Source: a virus
Virus record (IMG/VR): IMGVR_UViG_3300022758_000417
Strand: one strand, 5' to 3'
Length of the DNA: 20,555 nt
The notes under the pieces are model-generated. The model was not told where the DNA came from and searched no databases. It saw only the letters and a program-made list of their open reading frames with translations. Below are positions 1-20,555 of the stretch, piece after piece. The position numbers and the translations under genes were made by a program. The first letter of the stretch is position 1. Each line of letters opens with the position of its first letter.

Positions 1-50
1 GTATAATGGGATTCGTCAAAGCAAGCCGACCGATCAAAGGAGATTACATT

Positions 51-314
51 ATGGCTGCTATCACCCGCACTTTCAAGAGTTTCGAGCTGACCGCGTACGA
101 ACTGGATGATTCAATCCCGCCCAGCGTGCGCGCTGTCGCCCAGTACGTCGTGCTGGACACCAACATGAACGCCCGCAAAGCCCGTATCGCCTTCCGCGAT
201 GCCGGCGTGGCGCTGCCCAAGGGCTGCACGATCAAGTGGGTCGAAGGCGAGGAGAAGACCTATTCCATGCCCGTGGAAACGTTCCTTGAGAACGCGACCG
301 TCATCGACGCTTAA
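51..314 (+). CDS. Early protein, first gene next to the terminus. Possibly a histone-like dsDNA-binding protein analogous to phi29 p6.
   Basis: RBS AAAGGAG at 36-42, ATG at 51. The ATG at 6 leaves no room for an RBS. The C-terminus ...YSMPVETFLENATV resembles my recollection of phi29 p6 (...YELPVEKFLEVATV). Position matches the p6-p5-p4-TP-DNAP order. Confidence 0.5.
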   Translation: MAAITRTFKSFELTAYELDDSIPPSVRAVAQYVVLDTNMNARKARIAFRDAGVALPKGCTIKWVEGEEKTYSMPVETFLENATVIDA

Positions 315-339
315 ACCATCTGACTAGAAGGAGAAAACC

Positions 340-801
340 ATGACTGAGAACAAAGACATCGCCATCGCCGAGGAAATGCCCGTCAACGACCTCGCACCTG
401 CCCGCACGTACGCCATCGCCGAGCTTGCCAAGCCCGAGGACAACACGTTCTGCTCGGTGAACCCGGAACTTGGAGCGGATGCCAAGAAGCTGATCTACAA
501 CGCGTCCAACAACCCGACGCACAAGATCGACGACTTCATCAACAAGCAGATCGCGCTGAAAGACCTGTTCGTCGAGATCATCGAAATCGCAGACGAGGAC
601 GGCACCGTGGAGCAAGCCCCGCGCATCGTCCTCATCGACGACAAGGGCGAGAGCTACCAGTGCGTGTCGAACGGCGTGTGGGGTTCGCTCAAGAAGATGT
701 TCGCCGTCTACGGCGCGCCAACCTACGAGGAGCCTATCAACGTGGTCGTCAAGCAGGTGAAGGTCAAGCGCGGCACGATGCTCACCCTCGAAGTCGCTTA
801 A
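340..801 (+). CDS. Single-stranded DNA-binding protein, phi29 p5-like.
   Basis: RBS AAGGAG then ATG at 340. The C-terminal half (GESYQCVSNGVWGSL...VVVKQVKVKRGTMLTLEV) resembles phi29 p5 (GSLYSAISKTV...FKVKVVQGTSSKGNVFFSLQL). A strong terminator follows immediately. Confidence 0.55.
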   Translation: MTENKDIAIAEEMPVNDLAPARTYAIAELAKPEDNTFCSVNPELGADAKKLIYNASNNPTHKIDDFINKQIALKDLFVEIIEIADEDGTVEQAPRIVLIDDKGESYQCVSNGVWGSLKKMFAVYGAPTYEEPINVVVKQVKVKRGTMLTLEVA

Positions 802-815
802 AGTTCGCAATCGCA

Positions 816-841
816 GGCCGCACTCAGCGTGCGGCCTTTTT
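816..841 (+). terminator. Rho-independent terminator after the SSB gene.
   Basis: 8-bp GC stem ggccgcac / gtgcggcc with loop tcagc, followed by TTTTT, then the RBS of the next gene. Confidence 0.75.
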
Positions 842-853
842 CAGGAGGAAGCC

Positions 854-1162
854 ATGTTGTCGCTTGCAGACAAGGATTTGATGGAGCAGTTCGTAGCGGA
901 CTCGTCGAACAGGGTGTTGAAGAAAGAGCTATGGGCGCATGCCGTCGTCCCGCAAGGCGTGGCCGTTTTCAAGCGCCATCGTAACGGGCGCATCGAATAC
1001 ATGTTCACCAAGGACGACAAGTTCGATATGAAGCGGGACGACATAAACGACCTGCGAGAGCTTGTGCGCCGCCACGTCATAGACGATTATATCGGACTCG
1101 TCTTCGTTATGCATTCGCAAGCGTTGAAAACGGTTTCCAAGCATATCAAATACCGTTATTGA
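854..1162 (+). CDS. Hypothetical early protein of 102 aa. It has lower GC than its neighbours.
   Basis: RBS AGGAGG, spacer of 5, ATG at 854. Clean ORF between the terminator and the p4-like gene. No homolog recognised. Confidence 0.6.
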   Translation: MLSLADKDLMEQFVADSSNRVLKKELWAHAVVPQGVAVFKRHRNGRIEYMFTKDDKFDMKRDDINDLRELVRRHVIDDYIGLVFVMHSQALKTVSKHIKYRY

Positions 1163-1175
1163 AAGGAGGTGCGCC

Positions 1176-1580
1176 ATGCCTTCGAAAAACGGCGTTTTCT
1201 ACGAGCTGAAGGAATCGCCTTACTCTTTTATGTACGGCGATTGTACGTTCTTCTTCTCGTCTAGGAAGCATCTTTCCAGTTTCATGGACAAGATCTGCGT
1301 TCGAACGCAATGGTTGGACGACAGCATGGAAAAGCGTTTCCACTTCTACGTCAACATGCAGCTGGTCGCCGCGTTCCAACTGTACTTCACGGTGGAGACC
1401 AGGGGGTGCTACGTCAGATTGGAAAACGGTGAGGAGCTGACATGCAGAGAGAACCTAAGATTAAATGGACTGAAAGCCAGCGTTCGCGCCTCAACTCCGC
1501 AGTCCGAAAGTACAACAACGCCATTCGACGGGCTATGCGGGCGAATCCCGCCAACGCCCAGTTCATGCCCGAGCCGGTAA
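1176..1580 (+). CDS. Transcriptional regulator, phi29 p4-like (early/late switch protein).
   Basis: RBS AAAGGAGG then ATG at 1176. N-terminus MPSKNGVFYELKESPYSFMYGDCTFFFSS...FMDK matches phi29 p4 (MPKTQRGIYHNLKESEYVASNTDVTFFFSS...FLDG). ...YFTVETRGCYVRLENGEELTCRE matches ...FYSEVEKRGFHAWLKGDNATWRE. The last 139 nt overlap the terminal-protein gene in another frame. Confidence 0.7.
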   Translation: MPSKNGVFYELKESPYSFMYGDCTFFFSSRKHLSSFMDKICVRTQWLDDSMEKRFHFYVNMQLVAAFQLYFTVETRGCYVRLENGEELTCRENLRLNGLKASVRASTPQSESTTTPFDGLCGRIPPTPSSCPSR

Positions 1581-2182
1581 GCTACAAGGAAGTCAAAGCC
1601 GAGATCAAGAGCGCGCGCGTGCTTAACAACACGGTCGCGCGCTTGCTGCGCGCTACGCGCAAAGGAGCCTTGGACTTGACGAACGTCGGAGAGGGAGGGA
1701 TCGCCACGCGCTACGAAGTGCGGGAGTTCCAGATCGCGAAAGCCGTCAACGAGCGGCGCAAGTCGCTCAGGCGCAAGAAGCTGGGGATCGACTACGGCCA
1801 GACCCTGGGGCGCATGGGAACGTTGCAGCAGAACAACCTGCTTCCCGACAAGCGCACCGCGCGAGACTTCTCTCCCATCGCCCTCAAGCGTTTCATCAAA
1901 CGTTACGAGGAGCTGAGCGCCACGAGTTCCTACGAAAGGCTGAACCGGTACTACGAGAACTATATCAAAGGCCTCGACACGGTGTTCGGCGGCTACTCCG
2001 AGTTCGATGCGGCTATAGCTCAGATCGCGAGGAAGATCGAATCCATGATGAAGTCCAATGCGGGCAAGCTCATGGAGTTCTTCGAGTCCGGAGACGAGCT
2101 TCTGAACATCGAGTACATCTATGCGCCGGAAGACCGCGCCGACAAGATGGGCTACATCCTCGACAGATGGGCTGAGCTATGA
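1442..2182 (+). CDS. Terminal protein, the primer for protein-primed DNA replication.
   Basis: RBS GGTGAGGAG, spacer of 5, ATG at 1442. It lies directly upstream of the DNA polymerase gene, with its stop overlapping the polymerase start. Resemblance to phi29 p3: ARDFSPIALKRFIKRYEEL...YYENYIKGLDTVFGGYSEFDAAIAQIARKI versus HDFDFSKVRSY...LEE...YYEKKMIQLQLNFIKSVEGSFNSFDAADELIEELKKI. The priming Ser is possibly the one in EFFESGDE. Confidence 0.75.
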   Translation: MQREPKIKWTESQRSRLNSAVRKYNNAIRRAMRANPANAQFMPEPVSYKEVKAEIKSARVLNNTVARLLRATRKGALDLTNVGEGGIATRYEVREFQIAKAVNERRKSLRRKKLGIDYGQTLGRMGTLQQNNLLPDKRTARDFSPIALKRFIKRYEELSATSSYERLNRYYENYIKGLDTVFGGYSEFDAAIAQIARKIESMMKSNAGKLMEFFESGDELLNIEYIYAPEDRADKMGYILDRWAEL

Positions 2183-2183
2183 T

Positions 2184-3872
2184 ATGCAGTGCTTCACGGC
2201 TGATTTCGAAACGACGGCAGACGACCTGACCCGAACGCGAGTTTGGGCGTGGGCTGCTTGCACCTTGAAAACCTACGATATAACGACCGGAACCTCCATC
2301 GAAGGGTTCGTGGAATGGTGCGAGCGCGCCCTGGACGCTCGCGTGTACTTCCACAACCTGAAATTCGACGGGAAGTTCATCATATCGCATCTGCTCGACG
2401 CGGGATGGGAATGGATTCCCAGCCACGGAGAGCAAGCGCCCTACCGGTTCACGACGCTGATCAGCGACATGAACCAGTTCTACACCATCAAGCTCTATTT
2501 CAGCAGAGGGCATTATATCGAATTCTGCGATTCGCTGAAGATCATCAGCTTGCCGGTCGCGAAGATTCCGCGCGCGTTCGGCTTCGAGGAAGAGGACGCG
2601 AAGCTCGAGATAGACTACACGGAGCATCGCGATCCCGATCACGTTCTCACGCAGCAGGAGATAGACTACATATCGGCAGATGTCAGGATCGTGGCGCGCG
2701 CCTTGGGCGAGCTGATCGACCAGGGCGCGACCAGGATCACGGCGGGATCGAACGCCATCGCCGAGTACAAGAAGACGATAGGAGGCGAGAAGGGGTTCAG
2801 ACGGACGTTTCCAGTGTGCGACTACGACGCTGAGATACGCCCGTGCTACAAGGGCGGCTTCACCTACGTCAACCCCGATTTCAAAGGGCGCGACATCGGG
2901 GAGGGTATCGTCCTGGACGTTAACAGCCTCTACCCTTCCGTCATGGCCGGAGTCGAAGGCGAGATACTGCCGTACGGCGATCCGATGCTCTTCGAAGGGG
3001 AGTACGTCCCGGATCCTCGATACCCGCTCTACATACAGACCGTGACCGTCGACTTCAAGCTCAAGCCCGGTTTCATCCCTTGCTTGCAGCTCAAAGGCAA
3101 TTTGAGCTTCATGCCGACCGAATACGTAGTCGATTCCAAAGGAGAGCAGACGCTGGTATTGACGAGCGTCGACTTGGCGCTTTTGAAAGACCACTACAAC
3201 ATCTATTCCATCCGCTACGGCAAGGGCTGGAAGTTCAAGGCATCGAACAAGCTATTCTACGATTTCATAATGGCGGCCAACGAGGATAAGGTGCATGCGG
3301 CCGAGGAGGGCAACGCGGGCAAGCGGTACATGGCGAAGCTCAAGATGAACTCCTCGTACGGCAAGATGGCGACGCATCCGGTCAAACGGAGCCGCCGGCC
3401 GGTCATGTGCGAGGACGGCATAGTGCGCTACCCGCTGCTCGACCCGGAGCAGACAGAAGGAATGTACCTTCCCGCCGGGGCTTTCATCACGGCATGGGCG
3501 AGGAACAAGACGATACGCTCAGCCCAGAAGGTGAAGGATCGTTTCCTCTACGCCGACACCGATTCGCTCCACTTGACCGGAACCGAGATCCCGGAAGAGC
3601 TTGACGTGGACGATTACAGATTGGGCGCGTGGAAGCTCGAAAGCACGTTTCAGCGCGCCAGGTTCCTGCGCCCGAAGACCTATATCGAGGACGAGGGCGG
3701 CAAGCTCACCGTGCATTGCGCGGGGCTGCCAGAATCGTGCCATCCTCACGTCACGTGGGACAATTTCCATGTCGGCGCGAAATTTCCGGGAAAACTCTAT
3801 TCCAAGACCGTAAAAGGCGGTATTATACTATACGAAGGTGATTTTGTCATCAGAAAGGAGACAGGCTTATGA
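2184..3872 (+). CDS. Protein-primed family-B DNA polymerase (phi29 p2-like).
   Basis: Exonuclease motifs: Exo I FTADFETT, Exo II YFHNLKFDGKFI, Exo III YISADVRIV. Polymerase motifs: A DVNSLYPSVM, B KLKMNSSYGKMA, C YADTDS, KxY RPKTYIED. Insertions of TPR1 and TPR2 length sit between motifs A-B and B-C. Collinear with phi29 p2 over the whole length. The start was chosen as ATG 2184 (MQCFTADFETT), not the ORF-track start at 2121, which lies inside the terminal-protein gene. Confidence 0.95.
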   Translation: MQCFTADFETTADDLTRTRVWAWAACTLKTYDITTGTSIEGFVEWCERALDARVYFHNLKFDGKFIISHLLDAGWEWIPSHGEQAPYRFTTLISDMNQFYTIKLYFSRGHYIEFCDSLKIISLPVAKIPRAFGFEEEDAKLEIDYTEHRDPDHVLTQQEIDYISADVRIVARALGELIDQGATRITAGSNAIAEYKKTIGGEKGFRRTFPVCDYDAEIRPCYKGGFTYVNPDFKGRDIGEGIVLDVNSLYPSVMAGVEGEILPYGDPMLFEGEYVPDPRYPLYIQTVTVDFKLKPGFIPCLQLKGNLSFMPTEYVVDSKGEQTLVLTSVDLALLKDHYNIYSIRYGKGWKFKASNKLFYDFIMAANEDKVHAAEEGNAGKRYMAKLKMNSSYGKMATHPVKRSRRPVMCEDGIVRYPLLDPEQTEGMYLPAGAFITAWARNKTIRSAQKVKDRFLYADTDSLHLTGTEIPEELDVDDYRLGAWKLESTFQRARFLRPKTYIEDEGGKLTVHCAGLPESCHPHVTWDNFHVGAKFPGKLYSKTVKGGIILYEGDFVIRKETGL

Positions 3873-4225
3873 GCAGGTACCAACCGAGCTTGCGCGAGCT
3901 GGCCATGGAGCCGGACGAGGACAAGCGGCTCGAGATGGCCGCGCGAATCGACGAGGACGCGGCGGAACTCGACGACCGCTGGGACGAGCGCGAGGGCTGG
4001 CGAAACGAGCGCGAGGAGTGGGACGCGGAGCGCGACCGCCTGAACGCGGAGCGAGACGAGGCGATCGCCGAGCGCGACCGCTACCGCGAGGAGCGCGACG
4101 AGTCGCGCCGCAAGTACGCCGACCGGTTCTTCGCCGTCGAAGGCCAGACGCTGCTCCATGCGAACGAGGTAGGCGAGGAAGTTCGGCGCGAGCCGATCCG
4201 CTCAGCCGACGAGATCTGGGATTAA
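3869..4225 (+). CDS. Head scaffolding protein (gp7-like).
   Basis: RBS AAAGGAG then ATG at 3869. ATGA overlap with the polymerase stop. 118 aa, extremely Glu/Arg/Asp-rich with coiled-coil character. Lies immediately upstream of the capsid gene. Confidence 0.7.
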   Translation: MSRYQPSLRELAMEPDEDKRLEMAARIDEDAAELDDRWDEREGWRNEREEWDAERDRLNAERDEAIAERDRYREERDESRRKYADRFFAVEGQTLLHANEVGEEVRREPIRSADEIWD

Positions 4226-4234
4226 GGAGATATT

Positions 4235-5716
4235 ATGGCAGTGAAGCAACCTAATATGAAAGCCGCCGATTCGCCGATCGTCATGAAGGCCGGCGATACG
4301 GCAGCGCGCGAGACGGCCGCGCAGAAGGCGGTCGAAGCGACCATCAACGAGACCCCGGAGGTAGCGGCCGCGCTCGCGGCTCGCGGGATCCCGGCGACTT
4401 ACGACTCGAACAACCGCGCCTACGTGGAGCTTGCCGGAACCACCGACGAGATCCATGCCATCGGGGAGTACCTGACCAGCTACCAGCCCGCGCGAAACGC
4501 GTTCCTCAACGCGCTGGTGAACCGCATCGGCCTCACCATCGTGACATCGAAGCTGTACCGCAACCCCTGGGCGGTGTTCAAGCGCGGGTACCTCGAGTTC
4601 GGGGACACGATCGAGGAAATCTTCGTCAACCTCGCCGACGTTCACGGCTTCTACCCCGAGGGCGCGGAGGACACGTTCGCCAAGCGCGAGCTTCCCGACG
4701 TGCGCACCGCGTTCCACCGTATGAACTTCCAGAAGTTCTACAAGACGACCGTCTCCTCCCAGCAGCTGCGCCAGGCGTTCCTGTCCTGGACGGGCGTTAG
4801 CGACCTGATCGCGCGCATCATCGAGTCTCTCTACACCAGCGCCAACACGGACGAGTACTACGTCATGCGCTACTTCCTGGCCAAGTGCCTCCTCAACGGC
4901 TACATCGGCTCGGTGGAGATTCCCGCAATCGGCAAGGACAACGCCGTCGACATCGCCACGCAGTTCCAGTACATGTCCGACCTGTTCCAGTACCAGTCCA
5001 CGAAGTACAACATGGCGGGCGTGACCACCCACACCGATTTCGAAGACCAGTACTTCATCGTCACGGCCAAGTTCAAGGCCACGATGAACATGAACGTGCT
5101 GGCCACCGCATTCAACTTGGAGTACCGCGAGTTCCAGGCGCGCATGATCACGGTCGACACGTTCACCGACTTCGACTGGGTTCGCATGGACGCGCTGTTC
5201 ACCGACCCGGCCACCGGCCAGCTCGACCCGAACTACCACCGCTTCACGCAAGAGGAGATCGCGCTGCTCGAGACCGTGCCGGCGGTGCTGGTGTCCCGCG
5301 ATTGGTGGATGGTGCTGGACAACTACGTGGAGTCCGCGCAGTGGTTCAACGGCGAAGGCCTGTACTGGAACCATTGGCACCATGTGTGGAAGACCATCAG
5401 CTGCTCGCCGTTCGGCCAGGCGGCCGCCTTCACCCCGACCGCCCCGACCATCACGAGCGTGACGGTCACGCCGGCGACCGCCACCCTTTCCAAGGGAGCC
5501 GACCTGCAGCTGTCTGCCGCGGTCGTCGGAACCGGCATCGTGAACCATGGCGTGCAGTGGACGGTGACCGGAGGCGCGGCATCCGGCACGACCGTCACCA
5601 ACGGCGGGTACCTGCATGTGGCGGCCAACGAGACGGCGACGACGCTCACCGTCAAGGCAACCTCCGTCCAGGACGGAACGAAGACGGGCGAATCCACCGT
5701 CACCGTCACCGCATAG
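4235..5716 (+). CDS. Major capsid protein with a C-terminal BIG2 (bacterial Ig-like group 2) domain, as in phi29 gp8.
   Basis: RBS AAGGAG then ATG at 4235. 493 aa. The C-terminal ~90 aa (ITSVTVTPATATLSKGADLQLSAAVVGTG...VKATSVQDGTKTGESTVTVTA) is a typical BIG2 repeat. Sits between the scaffold and tail-knob genes. Confidence 0.8.
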   Translation: MAVKQPNMKAADSPIVMKAGDTAARETAAQKAVEATINETPEVAAALAARGIPATYDSNNRAYVELAGTTDEIHAIGEYLTSYQPARNAFLNALVNRIGLTIVTSKLYRNPWAVFKRGYLEFGDTIEEIFVNLADVHGFYPEGAEDTFAKRELPDVRTAFHRMNFQKFYKTTVSSQQLRQAFLSWTGVSDLIARIIESLYTSANTDEYYVMRYFLAKCLLNGYIGSVEIPAIGKDNAVDIATQFQYMSDLFQYQSTKYNMAGVTTHTDFEDQYFIVTAKFKATMNMNVLATAFNLEYREFQARMITVDTFTDFDWVRMDALFTDPATGQLDPNYHRFTQEEIALLETVPAVLVSRDWWMVLDNYVESAQWFNGEGLYWNHWHHVWKTISCSPFGQAAAFTPTAPTITSVTVTPATATLSKGADLQLSAAVVGTGIVNHGVQWTVTGGAASGTTVTNGGYLHVAANETATTLTVKATSVQDGTKTGESTVTVTA

Positions 5717-5729
5717 CCTATGTTCTGCC

Positions 5730-5760
5730 GAGGGCGGGATTCGTTTCCCGCCCTCCTTTC
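5730..5760 (+). terminator. Hairpin, likely a terminator or attenuator, after the capsid gene.
   Basis: 10-bp stem gagggcggga / tcccgccctc with loop ttcgtt, followed by CTTTCC (a weak U-tract), then the RBS GAAGGAGG of the next gene. Confidence 0.5.
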
Positions 5761-5775
5761 CGAAGGAGGTGAGAA

Positions 5776-7401: not shown

Positions 7402-7415
7402 GAAAGGAGGCATGC

Positions 7416-9079: not shown

Positions 9080-9089
9080 GGAGGAGCGC

Positions 9090-9548: not shown

Positions 9549-9559
9549 AGGAGAAGAAC

Positions 9560-11403: not shown

Positions 11404-11415
11404 GAGGAATCAAAC

Positions 11416-12452: not shown

Positions 12453-12463
12453 AAAGGAGGAAC

Positions 12464-13168: not shown

Positions 13169-13475
13169 GTTCATCGCGAGGAAGGGCAAGAATGCCGAAT
13201 ACCAGTTCACGCTCCTTTACTACGACGATGCTATCGGCATATGGCGCGACAACCGAAACGGTTGCTATTACGTATCGGAAGACGTTGACCGCCAATGCCG
13301 CCACGTGTTCGCCGCCACGACGGAAGACCATGAGCCGAACACTCTGCTGCTCAAAGGTTTCAAATCCTCGCCCCATCTGGCTAACTTGAAGAAGGCTTAC
13401 GACATGGGGTGCGTGCGGTACGAGTCCATGAAGCTCAACAACTGGTTTCGGGATATAGTTAGGATGGGATTATGA
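13041..13475 (+). CDS. DNA packaging ATPase, C-terminal part, in the +1 frame relative to the N-terminal part.
   Basis: PPELVEAKKGTRFYKAIEGSSY...KNAEYQFTLLYYDDAIGIWRDNRNGCYYVSED...NTLLLKGFKSSPHLANLKKAYDMGCVRYESMKLNNWFRDIV aligns with the gp16 C-terminus (SLDFSSERRKTRFGRLIDGTEYG...KFVFSIVYNGFTLGVWVDVNQGLMYIDT...NMMLITNYKNNYHLRKLASAFMNGYLRFDNQVIRNIAYELF). This frame is open from 12936. The first in-frame ATG is at 13050. Confidence 0.7.
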   Translation: MTQMVAPPELVEAKKGTRFYKAIEGSSYAAYAAENKWLRDNPKFIARKGKNAEYQFTLLYYDDAIGIWRDNRNGCYYVSEDVDRQCRHVFAATTEDHEPNTLLLKGFKSSPHLANLKKAYDMGCVRYESMKLNNWFRDIVRMGL

Positions 13476-13476
13476 T
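13455..13476 (+). repeat. Direct repeat DR1, AT[A/C]GTTAGGATGGGATT[A/G]TGAT, at the 3' end of the ATPase gene.
   Basis: 22 nt matching 13786-13807 with 2 mismatches. The core GTTAGGATGGGATT is identical in both. Each copy encodes ...VRMGL*, followed by an overlapping ATG. Confidence 0.8.
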
Positions 13477-13720
13477 CATCACGACTAAGAATGGCGACAT
13501 GGTAGATACAGTGCAGATTATCGAAGAAAACGTATATACCATAGATGATGTTAAATACGCGGTGGAAACTGACATGTATATTGCTGCAACGGTTCAGATA
13601 CGAATTTGCGATACTGGAAAGAAACAGCTGGAAGTTTCCGACCCGGAAATTGGCAAAGAAGCGCAGTACCATCTACGACAGTTCATCAAGTGCATGAAGA
13701 AGTTGGGAAGGTATTACTGA
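13472..13720 (+). CDS. Hypothetical 82-aa acidic protein in an AT-rich insert (a moron; possible anti-defence or host-takeover gene).
   Basis: ATGA overlap with the ATPase stop. GC is about 40% by hand count over the first 60 nt, against about 60% in the flanks. Bracketed by direct repeats at 13455-76 and 13786-807. Confidence 0.55.
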   Translation: MIITTKNGDMVDTVQIIEENVYTIDDVKYAVETDMYIAATVQIRICDTGKKQLEVSDPEIGKEAQYHLRQFIKCMKKLGRYY

Positions 13721-13806
13721 TGGCTGAACCTGTTATCATCAACGCGACCAAGCAAGGCGGCGTTGAGAACGCTTACGTAGGAACCATCGTTAGGATGGGA
13801 TTGTGA
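13720..13806 (+). CDS. 28-aa ORF (MAEPVIINATKQGGVENAYVGTIVRMGL). It duplicates an internal segment of the downstream hydrolase and is probably a recombination remnant rather than a gene.
   Basis: ATGA overlaps at both ends. 66 nt resemble 14282-14347 of the next gene, which encodes VIIISATKKGGVENAYIGTI. It ends in the DR2 copy of ...IVRMGL*. Confidence 0.3.
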   Translation: MAEPVIINATKQGGVENAYVGTIVRMGL

Positions 13807-13807
13807 T
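13786..13807 (+). repeat. Direct repeat DR2, partner of 13455-13476.
   Basis: See DR1. The spacing between the cores is 331 nt. Confidence 0.8.
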
Positions 13808-14978
13808 GGCGCGGGAGATAGTGCCGCAGCTGGGCGGTAGAAATTGCGTTTACACCTATATGGGCTGGTCGCTGATAACCGCGCCCGATTCGCTACAGTA
13901 CAAGCTTCGGGCGGATGCGGGTGAGAACTATGATGCAGAGGGATTCGCCATCATAGAAGGAAGATACGTGATAGCGTGCACCGAGGCGTTCGGGGGTGTC
14001 GGAGACTACGTGGATTTCCAGCTGGACACGGGGTTGATATTGAATTGCATCATCGGAGACGTTAAATCGTCGGGAGACCCTAATTACAGCGAATGGGGGC
14101 ATCTTTACCCGCCGAATTCGATTAGCGTGATAGAATCGGTTGTGGAGTACTCGAAATGGTATCCTAGTCATGCTAACCCCGGAACGCCGGGATGCAAGCC
14201 GGAATGGGCTGGAAACGTCGTTCTCGCGTTGAACTACGGAAACTACTGGGAAATAGATCCGCCGGGAGGAATCGATATGGCGAGCGTGATCATAATCAGC
14301 GCCACTAAGAAAGGCGGCGTTGAGAACGCCTACATTGGGACTATAGGCAACGACGGCTACATCTACTTCAACGATATAGACTTCTACAGATTCAAGAATG
14401 TCGGCACGTGGGAAGACAACGTATACGTTCTGAACCGCACTCGTCGCTCTTGGACGAAGACGACGATGTTCACGAAGATCAGCGCGCAGAATCTGAACTC
14501 AGGCTCCGGCAGCGTGGCACCCGGAGGATCGGGCGTGGAGGGCGCGTGCCTGTGGGCAGTGGGAATCGCCGACGACAACAGCCATGGCTACGACCAGCCG
14601 ACGCGGGACGGCGGCGTGGACTTCGACTGCTCCAGCCTGGTGTCATGGGCTTTCCGCGAGAACGGATGGGACGTTCCGTTCCCGTCGCCTTCGACCTACA
14701 ACATGTCAAGCGTGTTCACGGGGTTAGGGTTCAAACGGTACAACGGAAACCCCGCCGCGTCGGACTTGGTGCGCGGTGATATCGTTCTGTTCGAGGGCGA
14801 CATATCGGCGGGAACCGGGCACGTGGAGCTGTACCTCGGAAACGGGATGCTCGTGGGCGCTCATATCAACGAGTTCGGGGGCGTGGCCGGAGGACAGCCC
14901 GGCGACCAGACCGGTAACGAGATATCGACCGGCGGGTATTATAGGAGCTGGAACTGCTGGCTCAGATGGGAGGGTTAG
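13806..14978 (+). CDS. Tail-associated peptidoglycan hydrolase (a gp13 functional analogue). It has a C-terminal NlpC/P60-type cysteine peptidase domain and an N-terminal second putative lytic domain.
   Basis: ATG at 13806 (GTG at 13803 is also in frame). The C-terminus has GVDFDCSSLVSWAF (catalytic Cys), DLVRGDIVLFE and GHVELYLGNGMLVGAHINE (catalytic His), which is the typical NlpC/P60 layout. The N-terminal YVIACTEAFGGVGDYVDFQLDTG...CIIGDVK segment is of unknown type. Confidence 0.7.
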   Translation: MAREIVPQLGGRNCVYTYMGWSLITAPDSLQYKLRADAGENYDAEGFAIIEGRYVIACTEAFGGVGDYVDFQLDTGLILNCIIGDVKSSGDPNYSEWGHLYPPNSISVIESVVEYSKWYPSHANPGTPGCKPEWAGNVVLALNYGNYWEIDPPGGIDMASVIIISATKKGGVENAYIGTIGNDGYIYFNDIDFYRFKNVGTWEDNVYVLNRTRRSWTKTTMFTKISAQNLNSGSGSVAPGGSGVEGACLWAVGIADDNSHGYDQPTRDGGVDFDCSSLVSWAFRENGWDVPFPSPSTYNMSSVFTGLGFKRYNGNPAASDLVRGDIVLFEGDISAGTGHVELYLGNGMLVGAHINEFGGVAGGQPGDQTGNEISTGGYYRSWNCWLRWEG

Positions 14979-14979
14979 G

Positions 14980-15060
14980 ATGCTGTCGCATTATATTGCA
15001 CTTGTAGTGGGCACTATGTTAGGTATCGCTATTATGTGTCTGGTGAGCGGTAATAAATGA
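14980..15060 (+). CDS. Tiny hydrophobic peptide (26 aa, MLSHYIALVVGTMLGIAIMCLVSGNK).
   Basis: SD-like GGGAGGG overlaps the upstream stop, then ATG at 14980. A single predicted transmembrane helix. Its stop TGA is the first half of the TGAAC-N3-GTTCA palindrome. Confidence 0.35.
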   Translation: MLSHYIALVVGTMLGIAIMCLVSGNK

Positions 15061-15076
15061 ACGTTGTTCATTAATT
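15058..15076 (+). promoter_or_regulatory. Palindromic operator-like site TGAACgttGTTCA followed by TTAATT (copy 1).
   Basis: Perfect 5+5 inverted repeat with a 3-nt spacer. Repeated at 15398-15416 with an 18/19-nt match. Confidence 0.5.
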
Positions 15077-15158
15077 CGAATTATCGCAAAAATTATCACT
15101 TGCTTGTTCTATAATACAGTTGTAGGGATAAGTCGAAGGGTGAATGGAGGAATTGACA

Positions 15159-15307
15159 TGTTTCTAGGGCTTCCGGGATTTGCGTGGTTCGTGATCGGCG
15201 TTATAGTTGTGGCAGTGCTGGTTACCGTGGCGAATTGGTATATCATGTACTGCGTGTTCGACTGGGCAGTGCATCATGTGAAGCATGTTTGGTTGGATGA
15301 AGACTGA
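15159..15307 (+). CDS. Small membrane protein (49 aa, MFLGLPGFAWFVIGVIVVAVLVTVANWYIMYCVFDWAVHHVKHVWLDED).
   Basis: SD GGAGG, spacer of 7, ATG at 15159. The ORF-track start at 15104 lacks an RBS. One transmembrane helix and an acidic C-terminus. TATAAT lies at 15110-15115 upstream. Confidence 0.5.
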
Positions 15308-15397
15308 ATGAAGATGCATGAGGAACAAGTAACAGCGTGTCTGATTATGGCGGTCATCTTGGCCGCCTTACTCATTGTCAAACTGAGCGTGCATTGA
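15308..15397 (+). CDS. Tiny hydrophobic peptide (29 aa, MKMHEEQVTACLIMAVILAALLIVKLSVH). Low confidence.
   Basis: ATG directly after the upstream stop. No clear SD. The stop is followed immediately by the second TGAAC-N3-GTTCA-TTAATT site. Same peptide-plus-palindrome arrangement as 14980-15076. Confidence 0.25.
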   Translation: MKMHEEQVTACLIMAVILAALLIVKLSVH

Positions 15398-15416
15398 TGA
15401 ACGATGTTCATTAATT
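15398..15416 (+). promoter_or_regulatory. Palindromic operator-like site TGAACgatGTTCA followed by TTAATT (copy 2).
   Basis: See copy 1. Lies 31 nt upstream of the -35 of the consensus promoter. Confidence 0.5.
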
Positions 15417-15446
15417 GCATGATTGAGATGACAATTGGAAAATGAT

Positions 15447-15475
15447 TTGACATGAGGTGATGAAGCGTGTATAAT
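15447..15475 (+). promoter_or_regulatory. Perfect sigma70 consensus promoter, TTGACA-N17-TATAAT, reading rightwards.
   Basis: TTGACA at 15447-52, a 17-nt spacer, TATAAT at 15470-75, with TG immediately upstream of the -10. It is followed by GGG, so 15469-15478 (GTATAATGGG) equals the contig's terminal 10-mer. The promoter fires towards the inverted-repeat junction at 15519. Confidence 0.7.
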
Positions 15476-15518
15476 GGGGCTACAAAATCCACACGACAGA
15501 TGAATATGGGGGGAAAGA

Positions 15519-16321
15519 GGGTGTGGGTGGTCACGCCCGCCATGTTGTACTTCGTGGACTGGTACTGGAACAGGTCGGACATGTACTGGAACTGCGTGGC
15601 GATGTCGACGGCGTTGTCCTTGCCGATTGCGGGAATCTCCACCGAGCCGATGTAGCCGTTGAGGAGGCACTTGGCCAGGAAGTAGCGCATGACGTAGTAC
15701 TCGTCCGTGTTGGCGCTGGTGTAGAGAGACTCGATGATGCGCGCGATCAGGTCGCTAACGCCCGTCCAGGACAGGAACGCCTGGCGCAGCTGCTGGGAGG
15801 AGACGGTCGTCTTGTAGAACTTCTGGAAGTTCATACGGTGGAACGCGGTGCGCACGTCGGGAAGCTCGCGCTTGGCGAACGTGTCCTCCGCGCCCTCGGG
15901 GTAGAAGCCGTGAACGTCGGCGAGGTTGACGAAGATTTCCTCGATCGTGTCCCCGAACTCGAGGTACCCGCGCTTGAACACCGCCCAGGGGTTGCGGTAC
16001 AGCTTCGATGTCACGATGGTGAGGCCGATGCGGTTCACCAGCGCGTTGAGGAACGCGTTTCGCGCGGGCTGGTAGCTGGTCAGGTACTCCCCCGATGGCA
16101 TGGATCTCGTCGGTGGTTCCGGCAAGCTCCACGTAGGCGCGGTTGTTCGAGTCGTAAGTCGCCGGGATCCCGCGAGCCGCGAGCGCGGCCGCTACCTCCG
16201 GGGTCTCGTTGATGGTCGCTTCGACCGCCTTCTGCGCGGCCGTCTCGCGCGCTGCCGTATCGCCGGCCTTCATGACGATCGGCGAATCGGCGGCTTTCAT
16301 ATTAGGTTGCTTCACTGCCAT
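15519..16321 (-). pseudogene. Truncated, frameshifted copy of the capsid gene in the right repeat arm.
   Basis: Minus-strand translation is identical to capsid residues 1-77. A C5 run at 16089-16093 (G4 at 4463-4466 in the left copy) then shifts the frame. The copy ends at the junction, corresponding to capsid codon ~268. Confidence 0.85.
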
Positions 16322-16330
16322 AATATCTCC

Positions 16331-16687
16331 TTAATCCCAGATCTCGTCGGCTGAGCGGATCGGCTCGCGCCGAACTTCCTCGCCTACCTCGTTCGCATGG
16401 AGCAGCGTCTGGCCTTCGACGGCGAAGAACCGGTCGGCGTACTTGCGGCGCGACTCGTCGCGCTCCTCGCGGTAGCGGTCGCGCTCGGCGATCGCCTCGT
16501 CTCGCTCCGCGTTCAGGCGGTCGCGCTCCGCGTCCCACTCCTCGCGCTCGTTTCGCCAGCCCTCGCGCTCGTCCCAGCGGTCGTCGAGTTCCGCCGCGTC
16601 CTCGTCGATTCGCGCGGCCATCTCGAGCCGCTTGTCCTCGTCCGGCTCCATGGCCAGCTCGCGCAAGCTCGGTTGGTACCTGCTCAT
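16331..16687 (-). CDS. Scaffolding protein, second copy in the repeat.
   Basis: Identical translation to 3869..4225. Confidence 0.7.
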   Translation of the reverse strand: MSRYQPSLRELAMEPDEDKRLEMAARIDEDAAELDDRWDEREGWRNEREEWDAERDRLNAERDEAIAERDRYREERDESRRKYADRFFAVEGQTLLHANEVGEEVRREPIRSADEIWD

Positions 16688-18372
16688 AAGCCTGTCTCCT
16701 TTCTGATGACAAAATCACCTTCGTATAGTATAATACCGCCTTTTACGGTCTTGGAATAGAGTTTTCCCGGAAATTTCGCGCCGACATGGAAATTGTCCCA
16801 CGTGACGTGAGGATGGCACGATTCTGGCAGCCCCGCGCAATGCACGGTGAGCTTGCCGCCCTCGTCCTCGATATAGGTCTTCGGGCGCAGGAACCTGGCG
16901 CGCTGAAACGTGCTTTCGAGCTTCCACGCGCCCAATCTGTAATCGTCCACGTCAAGCTCTTCCGGGATCTCGGTTCCGGTCAAGTGGAGCGAATCGGTGT
17001 CGGCGTAGAGGAAACGATCCTTCACCTTCTGGGCTGAGCGTATCGTCTTGTTCCTCGCCCATGCCGTGATGAAAGCCCCGGCGGGAAGGTACATTCCTTC
17101 TGTCTGCTCCGGGTCGAGCAGCGGGTAGCGCACTATGCCGTCCTCGCACATGACCGGCCGGCGGCTCCGTTTGACCGGATGCGTCGCCATCTTGCCGTAC
17201 GAGGAGTTCATCTTGAGCTTCGCCATGTACCGCTTGCCCGCGTTGCCCTCCTCGGCCGCATGCACCTTATCCTCGTTGGCCGCCATTATGAAATCGTAGA
17301 ATAGCTTGTTCGATGCCTTGAACTTCCAGCCCTTGCCGTAGCGGATGGAATAGATGTTGTAGTGGTCTTTCAAAAGCGCCAAGTCGACGCTCGTCAATAC
17401 CAGCGTCTGCTCTCCTTTGGAATCGACTACGTATTCGGTCGGCATGAAGCTCAAATTGCCTTTGAGCTGCAAGCAAGGGATGAAACCGGGCTTGAGCTTG
17501 AAGTCGACGGTCACGGTCTGTATGTAGAGCGGGTATCGAGGATCCGGGACGTACTCCCCTTCGAAGAGCATCGGATCGCCGTACGGCAGTATCTCGCCTT
17601 CGACTCCGGCCATGACGGAAGGGTAGAGGCTGTTAACGTCCAGGACGATACCCTCCCCGATGTCGCGCCCTTTGAAATCGGGGTTGACGTAGGTGAAGCC
17701 GCCCTTGTAGCACGGGCGTATCTCAGCGTCGTAGTCGCACACTGGAAACGTCCGTCTGAACCCCTTCTCGCCTCCTATCGTCTTCTTGTACTCGGCGATG
17801 GCGTTCGATCCCGCCGTGATCCTGGTCGCGCCCTGGTCGATCAGCTCGCCCAAGGCGCGCGCCACGATCCTGACATCTGCCGATATGTAGTCTATCTCCT
17901 GCTGCGTGAGAACGTGATCGGGATCGCGATGCTCCGTGTAGTCTATCTCGAGCTTCGCGTCCTCTTCCTCGAAGCCGAACGCGCGCGGAATCTTCGCGAC
18001 CGGCAAGCTGATGATCTTCAGCGAATCGCAGAATTCGATATAATGCCCTCTGCTGAAATAGAGCTTGATGGTGTAGAACTGGTTCATGTCGCTGATCAGC
18101 GTCGTGAACCGGTAGGGCGCTTGCTCTCCGTGGCTGGGAATCCATTCCCATCCCGCGTCGAGCAGATGCGATATGATGAACTTCCCGTCGAATTTCAGGT
18201 TGTGGAAGTACACGCGAGCGTCCAGGGCGCGCTCGCACCATTCCACGAACCCTTCGATGGAGGTTCCGGTCGTTATATCGTAGGTTTTCAAGGTGCAAGC
18301 AGCCCACGCCCAAACTCGCGTTCGGGTCAGGTCGTCTGCCGTCGTTTCGAAATCAGCCGTGAAGCACTGCAT
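16684..18372 (-). CDS. Protein-primed family-B DNA polymerase, second copy.
   Basis: Identical translation to 2184..3872. Confidence 0.9.
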   Translation of the reverse strand: MQCFTADFETTADDLTRTRVWAWAACTLKTYDITTGTSIEGFVEWCERALDARVYFHNLKFDGKFIISHLLDAGWEWIPSHGEQAPYRFTTLISDMNQFYTIKLYFSRGHYIEFCDSLKIISLPVAKIPRAFGFEEEDAKLEIDYTEHRDPDHVLTQQEIDYISADVRIVARALGELIDQGATRITAGSNAIAEYKKTIGGEKGFRRTFPVCDYDAEIRPCYKGGFTYVNPDFKGRDIGEGIVLDVNSLYPSVMAGVEGEILPYGDPMLFEGEYVPDPRYPLYIQTVTVDFKLKPGFIPCLQLKGNLSFMPTEYVVDSKGEQTLVLTSVDLALLKDHYNIYSIRYGKGWKFKASNKLFYDFIMAANEDKVHAAEEGNAGKRYMAKLKMNSSYGKMATHPVKRSRRPVMCEDGIVRYPLLDPEQTEGMYLPAGAFITAWARNKTIRSAQKVKDRFLYADTDSLHLTGTEIPEELDVDDYRLGAWKLESTFQRARFLRPKTYIEDEGGKLTVHCAGLPESCHPHVTWDNFHVGAKFPGKLYSKTVKGGIILYEGDFVIRKETGL

Positions 18373-18373
18373 A

Positions 18374-19114
18374 TCATAGCTCAGCCCATCTGTCGAGGAT
18401 GTAGCCCATCTTGTCGGCGCGGTCTTCCGGCGCATAGATGTACTCGATGTTCAGAAGCTCGTCTCCGGACTCGAAGAACTCCATGAGCTTGCCCGCATTG
18501 GACTTCATCATGGATTCGATCTTCCTCGCGATCTGAGCTATAGCCGCATCGAACTCGGAGTAGCCGCCGAACACCGTGTCGAGGCCTTTGATATAGTTCT
18601 CGTAGTACCGGTTCAGCCTTTCGTAGGAACTCGTGGCGCTCAGCTCCTCGTAACGTTTGATGAAACGCTTGAGGGCGATGGGAGAGAAGTCTCGCGCGGT
18701 GCGCTTGTCGGGAAGCAGGTTGTTCTGCTGCAACGTTCCCATGCGCCCCAGGGTCTGGCCGTAGTCGATCCCCAGCTTCTTGCGCCTGAGCGACTTGCGC
18801 CGCTCGTTGACGGCTTTCGCGATCTGGAACTCCCGCACTTCGTAGCGCGTGGCGATCCCTCCCTCTCCGACGTTCGTCAAGTCCAAGGCTCCTTTGCGCG
18901 TAGCGCGCAGCAAGCGCGCGACCGTGTTGTTAAGCACGCGCGCGCTCTTGATCTCGGCTTTGACTTCCTTGTAGCTTACCGGCTCGGGCATGAACTGGGC
19001 GTTGGCGGGATTCGCCCGCATAGCCCGTCGAATGGCGTTGTTGTACTTTCGGACTGCGGAGTTGAGGCGCGAACGCTGGCTTTCAGTCCATTTAATCTTA
19101 GGTTCTCTCTGCAT
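18374..19114 (-). CDS. Terminal protein, second copy.
   Basis: Identical translation to 1442..2182. Confidence 0.75.
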   Translation of the reverse strand: MQREPKIKWTESQRSRLNSAVRKYNNAIRRAMRANPANAQFMPEPVSYKEVKAEIKSARVLNNTVARLLRATRKGALDLTNVGEGGIATRYEVREFQIAKAVNERRKSLRRKKLGIDYGQTLGRMGTLQQNNLLPDKRTARDFSPIALKRFIKRYEELSATSSYERLNRYYENYIKGLDTVFGGYSEFDAAIAQIARKIESMMKSNAGKLMEFFESGDELLNIEYIYAPEDRADKMGYILDRWAEL

Positions 19115-19380
19115 GTCAGCTCCTCACCGTTTTCCAATCTGACGTAGCACCCCCTGGTCTCCACCGTGAAGTACAGTTGGAACGCGGCGACCAGCTGCAT
19201 GTTGACGTAGAAGTGGAAACGCTTTTCCATGCTGTCGTCCAACCATTGCGTTCGAACGCAGATCTTGTCCATGAAACTGGAAAGATGCTTCCTAGACGAG
19301 AAGAAGAACGTACAATCGCCGTACATAAAAGAGTAAGGCGATTCCTTCAGCTCGTAGAAAACGCCGTTTTTCGAAGGCAT
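18976..19380 (-). CDS. p4-like transcriptional regulator, second copy.
   Basis: Identical translation to 1176..1580. Confidence 0.7.
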   Translation of the reverse strand: MPSKNGVFYELKESPYSFMYGDCTFFFSSRKHLSSFMDKICVRTQWLDDSMEKRFHFYVNMQLVAAFQLYFTVETRGCYVRLENGEELTCRENLRLNGLKASVRASTPQSESTTTPFDGLCGRIPPTPSSCPSR

Positions 19381-19393
19381 GGCGCACCTCCTT

Positions 19394-19702
19394 TCAATAA
19401 CGGTATTTGATATGCTTGGAAACCGTTTTCAACGCTTGCGAATGCATAACGAAGACGAGTCCGATATAATCGTCTATGACGTGGCGGCGCACAAGCTCTC
19501 GCAGGTCGTTTATGTCGTCCCGCTTCATATCGAACTTGTCGTCCTTGGTGAACATGTATTCGATGCGCCCGTTACGATGGCGCTTGAAAACGGCCACGCC
19601 TTGCGGGACGACGGCATGCGCCCATAGCTCTTTCTTCAACACCCTGTTCGACGAGTCCGCTACGAACTGCTCCATCAAATCCTTGTCTGCAAGCGACAAC
19701 AT
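19394..19702 (-). CDS. Hypothetical early protein, second copy.
   Basis: Identical translation to 854..1162. Confidence 0.6.
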   Translation of the reverse strand: MLSLADKDLMEQFVADSSNRVLKKELWAHAVVPQGVAVFKRHRNGRIEYMFTKDDKFDMKRDDINDLRELVRRHVIDDYIGLVFVMHSQALKTVSKHIKYRY

Positions 19703-19714
19703 GGCTTCCTCCTG

Positions 19715-19740
19715 AAAAAGGCCGCACGCTGAGTGCGGCC
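19715..19740 (-). terminator. Rho-independent terminator, second copy.
   Basis: Mirror image of 816..841. Confidence 0.7.
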
Positions 19741-19754
19741 TGCGATTGCGAACT

Positions 19755-20216
19755 TTAAGCGACTTCGAGGGTGAGCATCGTGCCGCGCTTGACCTTCACC
19801 TGCTTGACGACCACGTTGATAGGCTCCTCGTAGGTTGGCGCGCCGTAGACGGCGAACATCTTCTTGAGCGAACCCCACACGCCGTTCGACACGCACTGGT
19901 AGCTCTCGCCCTTGTCGTCGATGAGGACGATGCGCGGGGCTTGCTCCACGGTGCCGTCCTCGTCTGCGATTTCGATGATCTCGACGAACAGGTCTTTCAG
20001 CGCGATCTGCTTGTTGATGAAGTCGTCGATCTTGTGCGTCGGGTTGTTGGACGCGTTGTAGATCAGCTTCTTGGCATCCGCTCCAAGTTCCGGGTTCACC
20101 GAGCAGAACGTGTTGTCCTCGGGCTTGGCAAGCTCGGCGATGGCGTACGTGCGGGCAGGTGCGAGGTCGTTGACGGGCATTTCCTCGGCGATGGCGATGT
20201 CTTTGTTCTCAGTCAT
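19755..20216 (-). CDS. p5-like SSB, second copy.
   Basis: Identical translation to 340..801. Confidence 0.55.
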   Translation of the reverse strand: MTENKDIAIAEEMPVNDLAPARTYAIAELAKPEDNTFCSVNPELGADAKKLIYNASNNPTHKIDDFINKQIALKDLFVEIIEIADEDGTVEQAPRIVLIDDKGESYQCVSNGVWGSLKKMFAVYGAPTYEEPINVVVKQVKVKRGTMLTLEVA

Positions 20217-20241
20217 GGTTTTCTCCTTCTAGTCAGATGGT

Positions 20242-20505
20242 TTAAGCGTCGATGACGGTCGCGTTCTCAAGGAACGTTTCCACGGGCATGGAATAGGTCT
20301 TCTCCTCGCCTTCGACCCACTTGATCGTGCAGCCCTTGGGCAGCGCCACGCCGGCATCGCGGAAGGCGATACGGGCTTTGCGGGCGTTCATGTTGGTGTC
20401 CAGCACGACGTACTGGGCGACAGCGCGCACGCTGGGCGGGATTGAATCATCCAGTTCGTACGCGGTCAGCTCGAAACTCTTGAAAGTGCGGGTGATAGCA
20501 GCCAT
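20242..20505 (-). CDS. First early gene (p6-like?), second copy.
   Basis: Identical translation to 51..314. Confidence 0.5.
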   Translation of the reverse strand: MAAITRTFKSFELTAYELDDSIPPSVRAVAQYVVLDTNMNARKARIAFRDAGVALPKGCTIKWVEGEEKTYSMPVETFLENATVIDA

Positions 20506-20555
20506 AATGTAATCTCCTTTGATCGGTCGGCTTGCTTTGACGAATCCCATTATAC

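Follow-up and report, generated by a model that had tools for sequence, protein, structure and literature searches.

A 5-kb inverted repeat in a contig of the phi29-like LE1-1 phage group is most likely a sequencing or amplification chimera and not a real phage feature

Does a viral contig that begins and ends with the same 5 kb in opposite orientation represent a phage genome with very long terminal repeats, or a molecule that was joined by accident? The question is raised by IMG/VR virus record IMGVR_UViG_3300022758_000417, the whole 20,555 nucleotides of which are called the window here. Taken at face value, it would be catalogued as a complete 20.5-kb genome with record-length inverted terminal repeats (ITRs) for a protein-primed phage, and such cataloguing would distort the genome-size, completeness and ITR statistics of phi29-like gut phages. 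A preliminary description had favoured a rearranged genome able to replicate, and had offered a chimeric artefact as the alternative; it is the alternative that fits better, the favoured option being undercut by ends without origins, an oversize molecule and a broken packaging ATPase. We consider it probable that the window is a microhomology-primed snap-back or template-switch chimera, either made in vitro (of the type seen in phi29-polymerase amplification, MDA) or present as a chimeric read that the assembler kept.

Self-comparison of the window reproduced the inverted duplication already described. Positions 1-5035 are the exact reverse complement of 15520-20555 (the right arm being 5036 nt long), barring one homopolymer base, G4 in the left arm and C5 (equal to G5) in its mirror, which is the sole difference from arm to arm. 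A perfect inverted repeat of 5 kb cannot be a chance product. Its left breakpoint falls after base 5035, in codon 267 of the capsid ORF (4235-5716), and the right-arm copy of the capsid gene is truncated and also frameshifted by the extra G base. With its boundary inside the capsid gene, the repeat was rightly seen as a duplication breakpoint and not a designed terminal repeat; the limits first assigned to it (1-5036, 15519-20555 and codon ~268) were sound in substance and each off by one, which is immaterial.

Table 1. Features of the window and their coordinates.
Feature	Position	Strand	Remark
Left arm	1-5035	+	Native early/replication module and first 801 nt of capsid gene
Contig end GTATAATGGG	1-10	+	-10 box of early promoter
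Small ORF	51-314	+	Left arm
SSB	340-801	+	Family match
p4-like activator	1176-1580	+	Family match
Presumed terminal protein, 215-aa ORF	1535-2182	+	By position only, directly upstream of polymerase
DNA polymerase, protein-primed family B	2184-3872	+	PF03175, E = 6e-53; phrog_1907, E = 2.7e-136
ORF	3869-4225	+	Left arm
G4 run	4463-4466	+	In intact capsid gene; mirror at 16089-16093 has 5 nt
Single-copy part	5036-15519	+	Capsid remainder through inner right ITR
Single-copy genes	5036-15519		Capsid remainder, tail knob, connector, lower collar, variable tail/GDSL hydrolase region, lysozyme, gp16 packaging ATPase, tail lysin, small ORFs
T6 run	13037-13042	+	Frameshifts gp16-type packaging ATPase
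Inner ~163 nt of native right ITR	15362-15524	+	Outer at least 22 nt (CAGATTTACTTTTATACTACCC-3') missing
Consensus sigma-70 promoter, TTGACA-17-TATAAT, 12/12	15447-15475	+	Within ITR, facing outward
Junction microhomology GGTGT	15520-15524		Native right end against reverse-complemented capsid
Right arm	15520-20555	-	Inverted copy of 1-5035

The native genome can be read from relatives. Nucleotide identity between the window and Eggerthella phage LE1-1 (MW679025.1, Guelinviridae) is about 94% over window positions 1-15300, and the left arm is collinear with LE1-1 371-5405. The comparison set comprised 72 related sequences, namely LE1-1 and 71 metagenome contigs (35 from IMG/VR and 36 from ENA/JGI at 75-96% identity, plus one distant locus in each set, L036 and L068). 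The longest relative measures 16,964 nt. Terminal inverted repeats are present in about 15 of the sequences; typically ~180 bp long, they range from roughly 120 to 230 bp, and adapter sequence contributes to the longest of them. A long inverted duplication occurs in none of the 72. ITR-complete relatives span 15.7-16.7 kb, and the window molecule is thus 26-33% oversize; that its 20.5 kb equals the size of phi29 had been counted in favour of a real genome, and is irrelevant against that range. Judged from these alignments, the wild-type genome would be a linear, phi29-like molecule of ~16.3 kb in the Eggerthella LE1-1 group, with ITRs of ~185 bp. The GenBank reference for the group is deposited as circular.

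LE1-1 and its human-gut metagenome relatives resemble the window in gene order and in having all genes on one strand (SSB, p4-like activator, presumed terminal protein, protein-primed PolB, phi29-type capsid, tail knob, connector, gp16 ATPase, lysins). They differ in that their ITRs measure ~180-185 bp and a small gene cassette separates the left ITR from the equivalent of position 1, whereas in the window the left end and the last at least 22 nt of the right end are replaced by the inverted 5-kb copy. A further Eggerthella phage, described in a preprint (PMC13131767), was considered as a relevant system and set aside as an unrelated 44-kb phage.

Gene content bears on whether such a molecule could function. 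Family matches support the labels SSB, p4-like, polymerase and capsid as first given, and extend to the lower collar and lysins; the phi29-type capsid, connector, tail knob and gp16 packaging ATPase are matched by PF25622, PF05352, PF20934 and PF05894. The labels "p6-like", "terminal protein" and "scaffold" found no family match and are positional; for the presumed terminal protein ORF, both Pfam and PHROG were searched. An Rfam scan (E <= 1) found no prohead RNA or other RNA in the window or in the complete relative L015, though a divergent pRNA would escape it. The packaging ATPase is split by the T6 run into ORFs 12404-13168 and 13041-13475; relatives have 5 nt at this site (TTCCT or TTCTT) and a single intact 336-aa gene. 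The view that every essential gene is present once does not hold, given this frameshift and the loss of a conserved small left-end gene. There are accordingly two homopolymer indels across 20.5 kb, one of them disrupting an essential gene, which points to homopolymer-prone data or to coverage low enough for one chimeric molecule to dominate. The G4/G5 difference had been taken as a sign that the arms were sequenced independently, an argument weakened by the second indel, which lies in the unique region and suggests data prone to homopolymer error.

The right end of the single-copy region holds a feature that the preliminary description overlooked. Aligned in inverted orientation, the left ends of relatives with ITRs correspond to window 15519-15362; the final ~160 nt of what had been taken as "unique" sequence belong to the native right ITR. 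In relatives the native right end reads ...GGGTGTCAGATTTACTTTTATACTACCC; the window departs from this path at least 22 nt short of the true right terminus and switches to the capsid gene. The true right end, beyond 15518, had been thought to be missing; in substance this is wrong, since the window reaches to within ~22 nt of it. Many related complete genomes have right ends that run on collinearly past 15518, an observation named in advance as one that would speak against a rearranged genome. At the switch the shared sequence is GGTGT, which occurs in the native right end as GAG-GGTGT-CAG and in the reverse-complemented capsid gene (5031-5035) as ATC-GGTGT-GGG; a junction microhomology of at least 5 nt has a chance probability of P = 0.0046. 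An overlap of this length is consistent with primer annealing, whereas a k-mer misjoin would need a far longer one. The junction 23-mer has no match in IMG/VR or the metagenome collection, and exact-protein look-ups in the contig index gave no entry for the capsid, tail knob or polymerase of the window. The ITR promoter, also present in the left ITR of L015 (97->69, minus strand), is directed here antisense into the duplicated arm.

At the other side of the problem, both window ends lie ~530 nt inside the native left end. Position 1 falls 488-1030 nt (typically ~525) from the contig starts of relatives, and the native sequence to its left is ...TTTCAACCCGC, then the left cassette and ITR. The arms are without the ~185-bp ITR and without the terminal sequence 5'-GGGTAGTATAAAAG... 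that related contigs bear at both ends, and the only ITR sequence in the window is the internal right-ITR part. Because the ITR and terminal sequence are absent, neither window end, as sequenced, carries a replication origin, and the 5-kb repeat does not reach physical termini with an origin as a genuine long ITR would. A rearranged genome with the same origin at both ends, as had been proposed, is unsupported, the arms stopping short of the native left terminus.

That the window does not end at genome termini had also gone unnoticed. One conceivable reason for a contig stop there, a boundary between conserved and variable sequence at which assembly breaks, was rejected, since the 60-110 nt upstream of position 1 are conserved across all relatives; the only other contig starting nearby is L004, at window position 23. 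The terminal decamer GTATAATGGG recurs in direct orientation at 15469-15478, within the ITR promoter. This 10-nt repeat does not support a second junction: five 10-mers are shared with the ITR region, against ~4 expected by chance.

The window follows the native path from ~nt 530 of the genome to ~22 nt from the right terminus, and then the reverse complement of the capsid gene and early module back to the exact start of the contig. A displaced or run-off plus strand may have been trimmed by ~22 nt at its 3' end by a proofreading, strand-displacing polymerase acting on the unpaired tail. The trimmed end would then anneal to ACACC at 5031-5035, on the same strand (snap-back) or a sister strand, and be extended to the 5' end of the template. 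Snap-back on the same strand would give an A-U-rc(A) molecule with exactly symmetric ends. The product proposed in this way is the standard inverted chimera of MDA, and we infer that the chimera originated in vitro. Along the assembler route, the junction could become fixed from very few chimeric reads, as one ~22 nt from a linear end would compete only with a short dead-end tip of the kind that assemblers clip, and path extension over the same arm edge in both directions would again yield symmetric ends. Whichever route applies, the phage genome itself does not have the 5-kb repeat.

Comparison with characterized chimeras favours this account. More than 85% of MDA chimeras are inverted with an intervening segment and are mostly intramolecular, and more than 70% of junctions show 2-21 nt of complementarity (Lasken & Stockwell 2007, PMC1855051); phi29 polymerase in vitro switches to displaced strands unless SSB is added (PMC4176320). 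In the window, the native path stops 22 nt before the right end and is joined to rc(5035..1), an inverted join with 10.5 kb intervening, and the junction shows 5 nt of complementarity, GGTGT. It is thus like the inverted chimeras of MDA (PMC1855051) in inversion and intervening segment, and its geometry is consistent with an intramolecular event; it differs in the length of the segment, 10.5 kb, and in a donor 3' end that adjoins the genome terminus.

Several observations count against a chimera of this kind. A junction no more than ~25 nt from the genome end is unlikely for a random MDA chimera (~0.3%), so that the account needs either run-off 3' ends with exonuclease trimming or selection through tip clipping, both of which are plausible. 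With normal reads covering the genome, an assembler should extend the arms past position 1; the stop exactly at GTATAATGGG is explained only by a single-molecule snap-back or by an unseen branch in the graph. The G4/G5 difference is not expected if the assembler merely reused one graph edge. Finally, the phage's own polymerase belongs to the same enzyme family as the amplification enzyme and could yield an identical product in the cell.

The last of these points leads to the strongest rival, a by-product of protein-primed replication in vivo, which we regard as unlikely although it deserves to be weighed. It would arise by a switch or snap-back near the right end, priming at ACACC in the capsid gene, and would give a defective and probably unpackaged replicon of ~21.6 kb with the left end at both ends, analogous to subgenomic template-switch molecules of phi29 and to long-ITR derivatives of adenovirus and linear plasmids. 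In its favour, only ~22 nt separate the microhomology junction from the 3' end of the displaced plus strand, exactly the place at which a free 3' end occurs in vivo; genes for an SSB and a phi29-family polymerase are both present in the window; and the G4/G5 difference is compatible with two physically separate copies. Template switching in vivo is documented for phi29 itself, where it gives rise to accumulating subgenomic molecules of 1-8 kb according to PMC4974454, which cites Murthy et al. 1998; that article and PMC4176320 cite alongside it the in vitro evolved phi29 TP-genomes of Esteban et al. 1997. These products resemble the window in carrying one genome end in inverted duplicate and in stemming from a protein-primed, strand-displacing polymerase. 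They are reportedly short (1-8 kb), near-perfect palindromes of one end, formed by fork switching and bounded by genuine TP-bearing termini, whereas the window exceeds the genome in size, encloses 10.5 kb of unique sequence and ends in sequence that is not terminal.

In adenovirus panhandle repair and symmetric recombinants, and in hairpin plasmids derived from pGKL1, an inverted copy of one end takes the place of the other, and such derivatives are in principle replicable from two identical origins. They retain a true terminal origin at both ends, physically demonstrated; the window has no such origin at its ends and is known here from its nucleotide sequence. Had the window molecule arisen in the cell, its arms should extend as far as the TP-linked native left terminus and take in the ITR and the ~345-nt left cassette, yet each arm stops ~530 nt before that point, where the adjoining native sequence is conserved in all relatives. 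The molecule would be ~132% of native length for a phage with unit-length packaging, its outward promoter would transcribe the arm antisense, its packaging ATPase is frameshifted, and its junction is found in none of the 72 relatives and its 23-mer in neither of the two collections. The specific version in which infected Eggerthella cells produced it (a ~22-nt trim, a 5-nt snap-back, and copying of the left 5.5 kb by the phage's own polymerase, with the contig ending short of the termini) is, if anything, a little more doubtful still. Were it true, the replicon would exceed the genome in size and have the left origin at each end, and no natural long-ITR derivative of a phi29-like phage would have been seen in a gut sample before it; an origin in vivo would extend phi29 template-switch behaviour to a natural gut phage, and would still be a variant of a known phenomenon.

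Very improbable is a purely computational misjoin, in which the assembler path folded back through a shared repeat without any physical chimeric molecule. Seed-and-extend assemblers do emit symmetric A-U-rc(A) contigs when the same edge adjoins a unique edge on both sides in opposite orientations, and the ~180-bp ITRs of many relatives were emitted in exactly that way, but the two sides of the junction share only 5 nt, well under any assembly k-mer or overlap, and therefore at least one read must carry the junction; nor, since the arms differ by one base, was a single edge reused verbatim. Less credible again is a viable lineage with a heritable, packaged genome and natural ITRs of at least 5 kb: every structural and replication gene is present at least once and, by analogy with adenovirus and linear plasmids, identical left ends could in principle supply two working origins, yet neither end as sequenced has a terminal origin, the repeat boundary cuts the capsid gene, the ATPase is broken, the length exceeds that of ITR-complete relatives by 26-33%, no such structure is found among the 72 relatives and the arms lack any divergence indicating age. 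A nanopore template-complement fold-back or a PacBio missing-adapter read was rejected, as the palindromes that these produce are centred on a fragment end and do not enclose 10.5 kb of unique sequence.

For the chimera that we prefer, the position of the junction, ~22 nt from the true end of a 16.3-kb genome, has a practical consequence. An apparent long "ITR" should be treated as a chimera when its inner boundary falls within a gene and the terminal sequence of the family is missing from its outer ends. The analysis also yields, as a useful by-product, firmly described native ends for the LE1-1 group: the ITR is ~185 bp long, the terminus reads 5'-GGGTAGTATAAAAG..., and a consensus promoter within the ITR faces outward.

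Window 15520-20555 is the reverse complement of 1-5035, as found both with a repeat finder and in a direct base-by-base walk. A perfect 5-kb inverted repeat is not attributable to chance, and the observation therefore stands. The preliminary description had reported this duplication correctly, with coordinates off by one immaterial base. The sole mismatch between the arms is in a homopolymer (G4 in the left arm, five bases in the right), and the left breakpoint cuts the capsid ORF in codon 267. We rate the duplication as not a real feature of the genome. Its orientation, intervening segment and microhomology are those that define a strand-displacement inverted chimera; the features that define a genuine long inverted terminal repeat (ITR), namely reaching the termini and recurrence in relatives, are lacking.

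Among deposited phages, megablast finds a single relative, Eggerthella phage LE1-1 (MW679025.1; 15,977 bp; Guelinviridae), which aligns collinearly to window 1-15300 at 94% identity, its position 371 corresponding to window position 1. A connector-protein search gathered 35 IMG/VR loci and 37 ENA/JGI gut-metagenome loci, with one distant locus in each set. The longest of these related contigs is 16,964 nt, and inverted repeats longer than ~230 bp are absent from all of them. Some 15 contigs, each 15.7-16.7 kb long, end in inverted repeats that span ~120-230 bp, typically ~180; related contig ends begin 5'-(GGG)TAGTATAAAAGTAAATCTGACACCCTCTTTCCCCCCATATTC..., and the right ends reaching furthest close ...GGGTGTCAGATTTACTTTTATACTACCC-3'. 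On the evidence of these contigs and their end sequences, the wild type is linear, with a length of ~16.3 kb and ITRs of ~185 bp; the window phage is unremarkable within the LE1-1 group. Nextera adapter or mosaic-end sequence (..AGATGTGTATAAGAGACAG) is joined to phage termini in several IMG/VR and ENA contigs, and its retention inflates apparent terminal inverted repeats to 192-228 bp. The LE1-1 record is deposited as circular and ends inside the ITR: of its terminal stretches, 1-28 and 15935-15977, the first is the reverse complement of 15935-15962, and each ITR is short of its outer ~140 nt, which metagenome relatives have. Almost certainly, LE1-1 has a linear genome whose record is an ITR-collapsed assembly.

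Window 15519-15362 is matched, inverted, by the ITRs at the left ends of relatives and therefore represents the inner portion of the right ITR of the native genome. As far as ...GGGGGGAAAGAGGGTGT the window keeps to the native right end; from there, relatives run CAGATTTACTTTTATACTACCC to the terminus and the window runs GGGTGGTCACGCC..., which is capsid-gene sequence in reverse complement. The pentamer GGTGT is common to both junction partners, and a random join would show at least 5 nt of microhomology with a probability of 0.0046. The junction thus lies ~22 nt from the true right terminus and bears the mark of primer annealing. The preliminary description was wrong in substance to call the wild-type right end missing.

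The ITR also holds a perfect consensus sigma-70 promoter (12/12, TTGACA-17-TATAAT) facing the terminus, found likewise in L015, a related metagenome contig, at 97-69 (-); it points outward toward each terminus, with only ~60 nt of template before it. It could drive a short RNA at the terminus, bind protein, or serve as an origin element. Rfam gives no match at E<=1 in the window or in L015, and a pRNA was not found anywhere in the genome. In the window, this promoter would transcribe the duplicated arm antisense. The window has two copies of an operator-like palindrome, TGATGAACG(N)TGTTCATTAATT, which may be a regulator binding site; it is kept in relatives, and the LE1-1 record stops inside it.

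The geometry is that of a native plus strand that jumps near its 3' end to a same-strand site 10.5 kb upstream and is copied back to the exact start, which is what snap-back of a displaced or run-off strand produces. We infer that the proofreading exonuclease of the polymerase trims the unpaired 3' tail, that the trimmed end anneals to an ACACC at the inner edge of the left arm, and that extension continues to the strand's own 5' end, which would explain the exactly symmetric outer ends. Among MDA chimeras, >85% are inverted with an intervening segment, mostly intramolecular, and >70% of junctions have 2-21 nt of complementarity (Lasken & Stockwell, PMC1855051). In vitro, phi29 polymerase switches onto displaced strands unless SSB is present (Ducani et al., PMC4176320).

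In every relative, window position 1 maps 488-1030 nt (typically ~525) from the contig start. Upstream of it come the ITR, a small gene cassette that varies (LE11_1 in LE1-1) and a hairpin resembling a terminator, which is conserved. The ITR and terminal sequence are therefore missing from both window ends, and, as sequenced, so is the replication origin. The contig opens exactly with GTATAATGGG, repeated directly in the ITR promoter. Five 10-mers of such kind are seen against ~4 expected by chance, and both copies are -10 boxes; the repeat may be a coincidence between two promoters. Its placement precisely at the contig end is odd; a second microhomology event is one possible cause, a graph branch another. 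The phage group has two hypervariable regions. One is the left-end cassette (340-850 nt), which in relatives lies between the left ITR and the equivalent of window position 1 and is lacking in the window; the second is the C-terminal portion of the GDSL-hydrolase tail protein, which aligns with the window in only two related contigs (L037 and L035).

Snap-back of the displaced parental plus strand could instead have occurred in the cell during phage replication, an origin we consider improbable. The phage encodes a phi29-family polymerase of its own, and the free 3' end of the displaced strand is located precisely at the right terminus, where the junction would naturally fall. Template switching by phi29 in vivo yields accumulating subgenomic molecules of 1-8 kb according to Murthy et al. 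1998, as cited in PMC4974454; Esteban et al. 1997 is cited together with that study for related "replication anomalies." However, the 5' end of the plus strand is the TP-linked native left terminus, predicting arms with the left cassette and ITR, both of which are absent; with normal reads, moreover, an assembler would be expected to extend the single-path region to the ITR boundary, not to halt at position 1. These two discrepancies keep the probability low. Even if true, this origin would make the molecule a variant of known phi29 template-switch behavior.

Assembly offers another route, for which a few chimeric reads would suffice. De Bruijn assemblers clip short dead-end tips. A junction within ~22 nt of a linear end would compete only with such a tip, and selection by clipping would account for the surviving junction adjoining the terminus; path extension from the long unique edge would then follow one and the same arm edge outward in both directions. 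Simple double use of one graph edge would not predict the G4/G5 difference. A purely computational misjoin is unlikely because no k-mer or overlap used in assembly is nearly as short as five shared bases. We consider it very improbable that the contig represents a heritable, packaged long-ITR lineage. Arms extended to the native terminus would give a ~21.6-kb molecule, ~132% of native length in a phage family that packages unit-length TP-DNA, a packaging mode established for phi29.

The gp16-type packaging ATPase is broken into two ORFs by a frameshift at a T6 run; relatives have five bases at this point, and the gene, of 336 aa, is intact in all that were examined. Counting the G4/G5 difference, the 20.5 kb contain two homopolymer indels, an indication of data that are homopolymer-prone or low in coverage, or of a defective molecule. 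The preliminary description took the G4/G5 difference as a sign of independently sequenced arms; the difference itself holds, and its value as proof of two independently real copies is weakened by the second indel.

Features of the window and adapter-bearing ends of related contigs (L-numbers; positions in the contig)
Feature	Position	Remark
SSB, phi29-type		Pfam/PHROG match
Late activator, p4-like		Pfam/PHROG match
Family-B DNA polymerase, protein-primed		Pfam/PHROG match
Tandem 42-nt repeats	4007-4105	mirrored 16451-16576
Major capsid protein, phi29-type	4235-5716	Pfam/PHROG match
Arm mismatch	4463-4466; 16089-16093	G4; five bases
ACACC	5031-5035	proposed annealing site
Tail knob		Pfam/PHROG match
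Connector		Pfam/PHROG match
Lower collar		Pfam/PHROG match
GDSL hydrolase tail protein		Pfam/PHROG match
GDSL-hydrolase variable part	9900-11035
GH25 lysozyme		Pfam/PHROG match
gp16-type packaging ATPase		Pfam/PHROG match
T6 run	13037-13042	in ATPase
NlpC/P60 tail lysin		Pfam/PHROG match
Palindrome	15044-15076	end of last late gene
Palindrome	15384-15416	inside ITR
ITR promoter	15447-15475 (+)
GTATAATGGG	1-10; 15469-15478	direct repeat
Untrimmed Nextera, L014	1-50
Untrimmed Nextera, L018	1-47 and both ends
Untrimmed Nextera, L026	both ends
Untrimmed Nextera, L035	1-19
Untrimmed Nextera, L056	end	probable

Pfam and PHROG scans of the window uphold the SSB, p4-like, polymerase and capsid labels first assigned from sequence; the "p6-like," "terminal protein" and "scaffold" ORFs have no family match in these scans, and those labels were positional guesses. 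The presumed scaffold, a 118-aa ORF upstream of the capsid gene, contains three tandem 42-nt repeats (family D1) coding for a Glu/Arg/Asp-rich sequence. An independent contig, L004 (IMGVR_UViG_3300029408_000068), starts at window position 23 with 95.5% identity; its length of 10,278 nt equals the position of the window's symmetry center, which, in a different strain, looks like coincidence.
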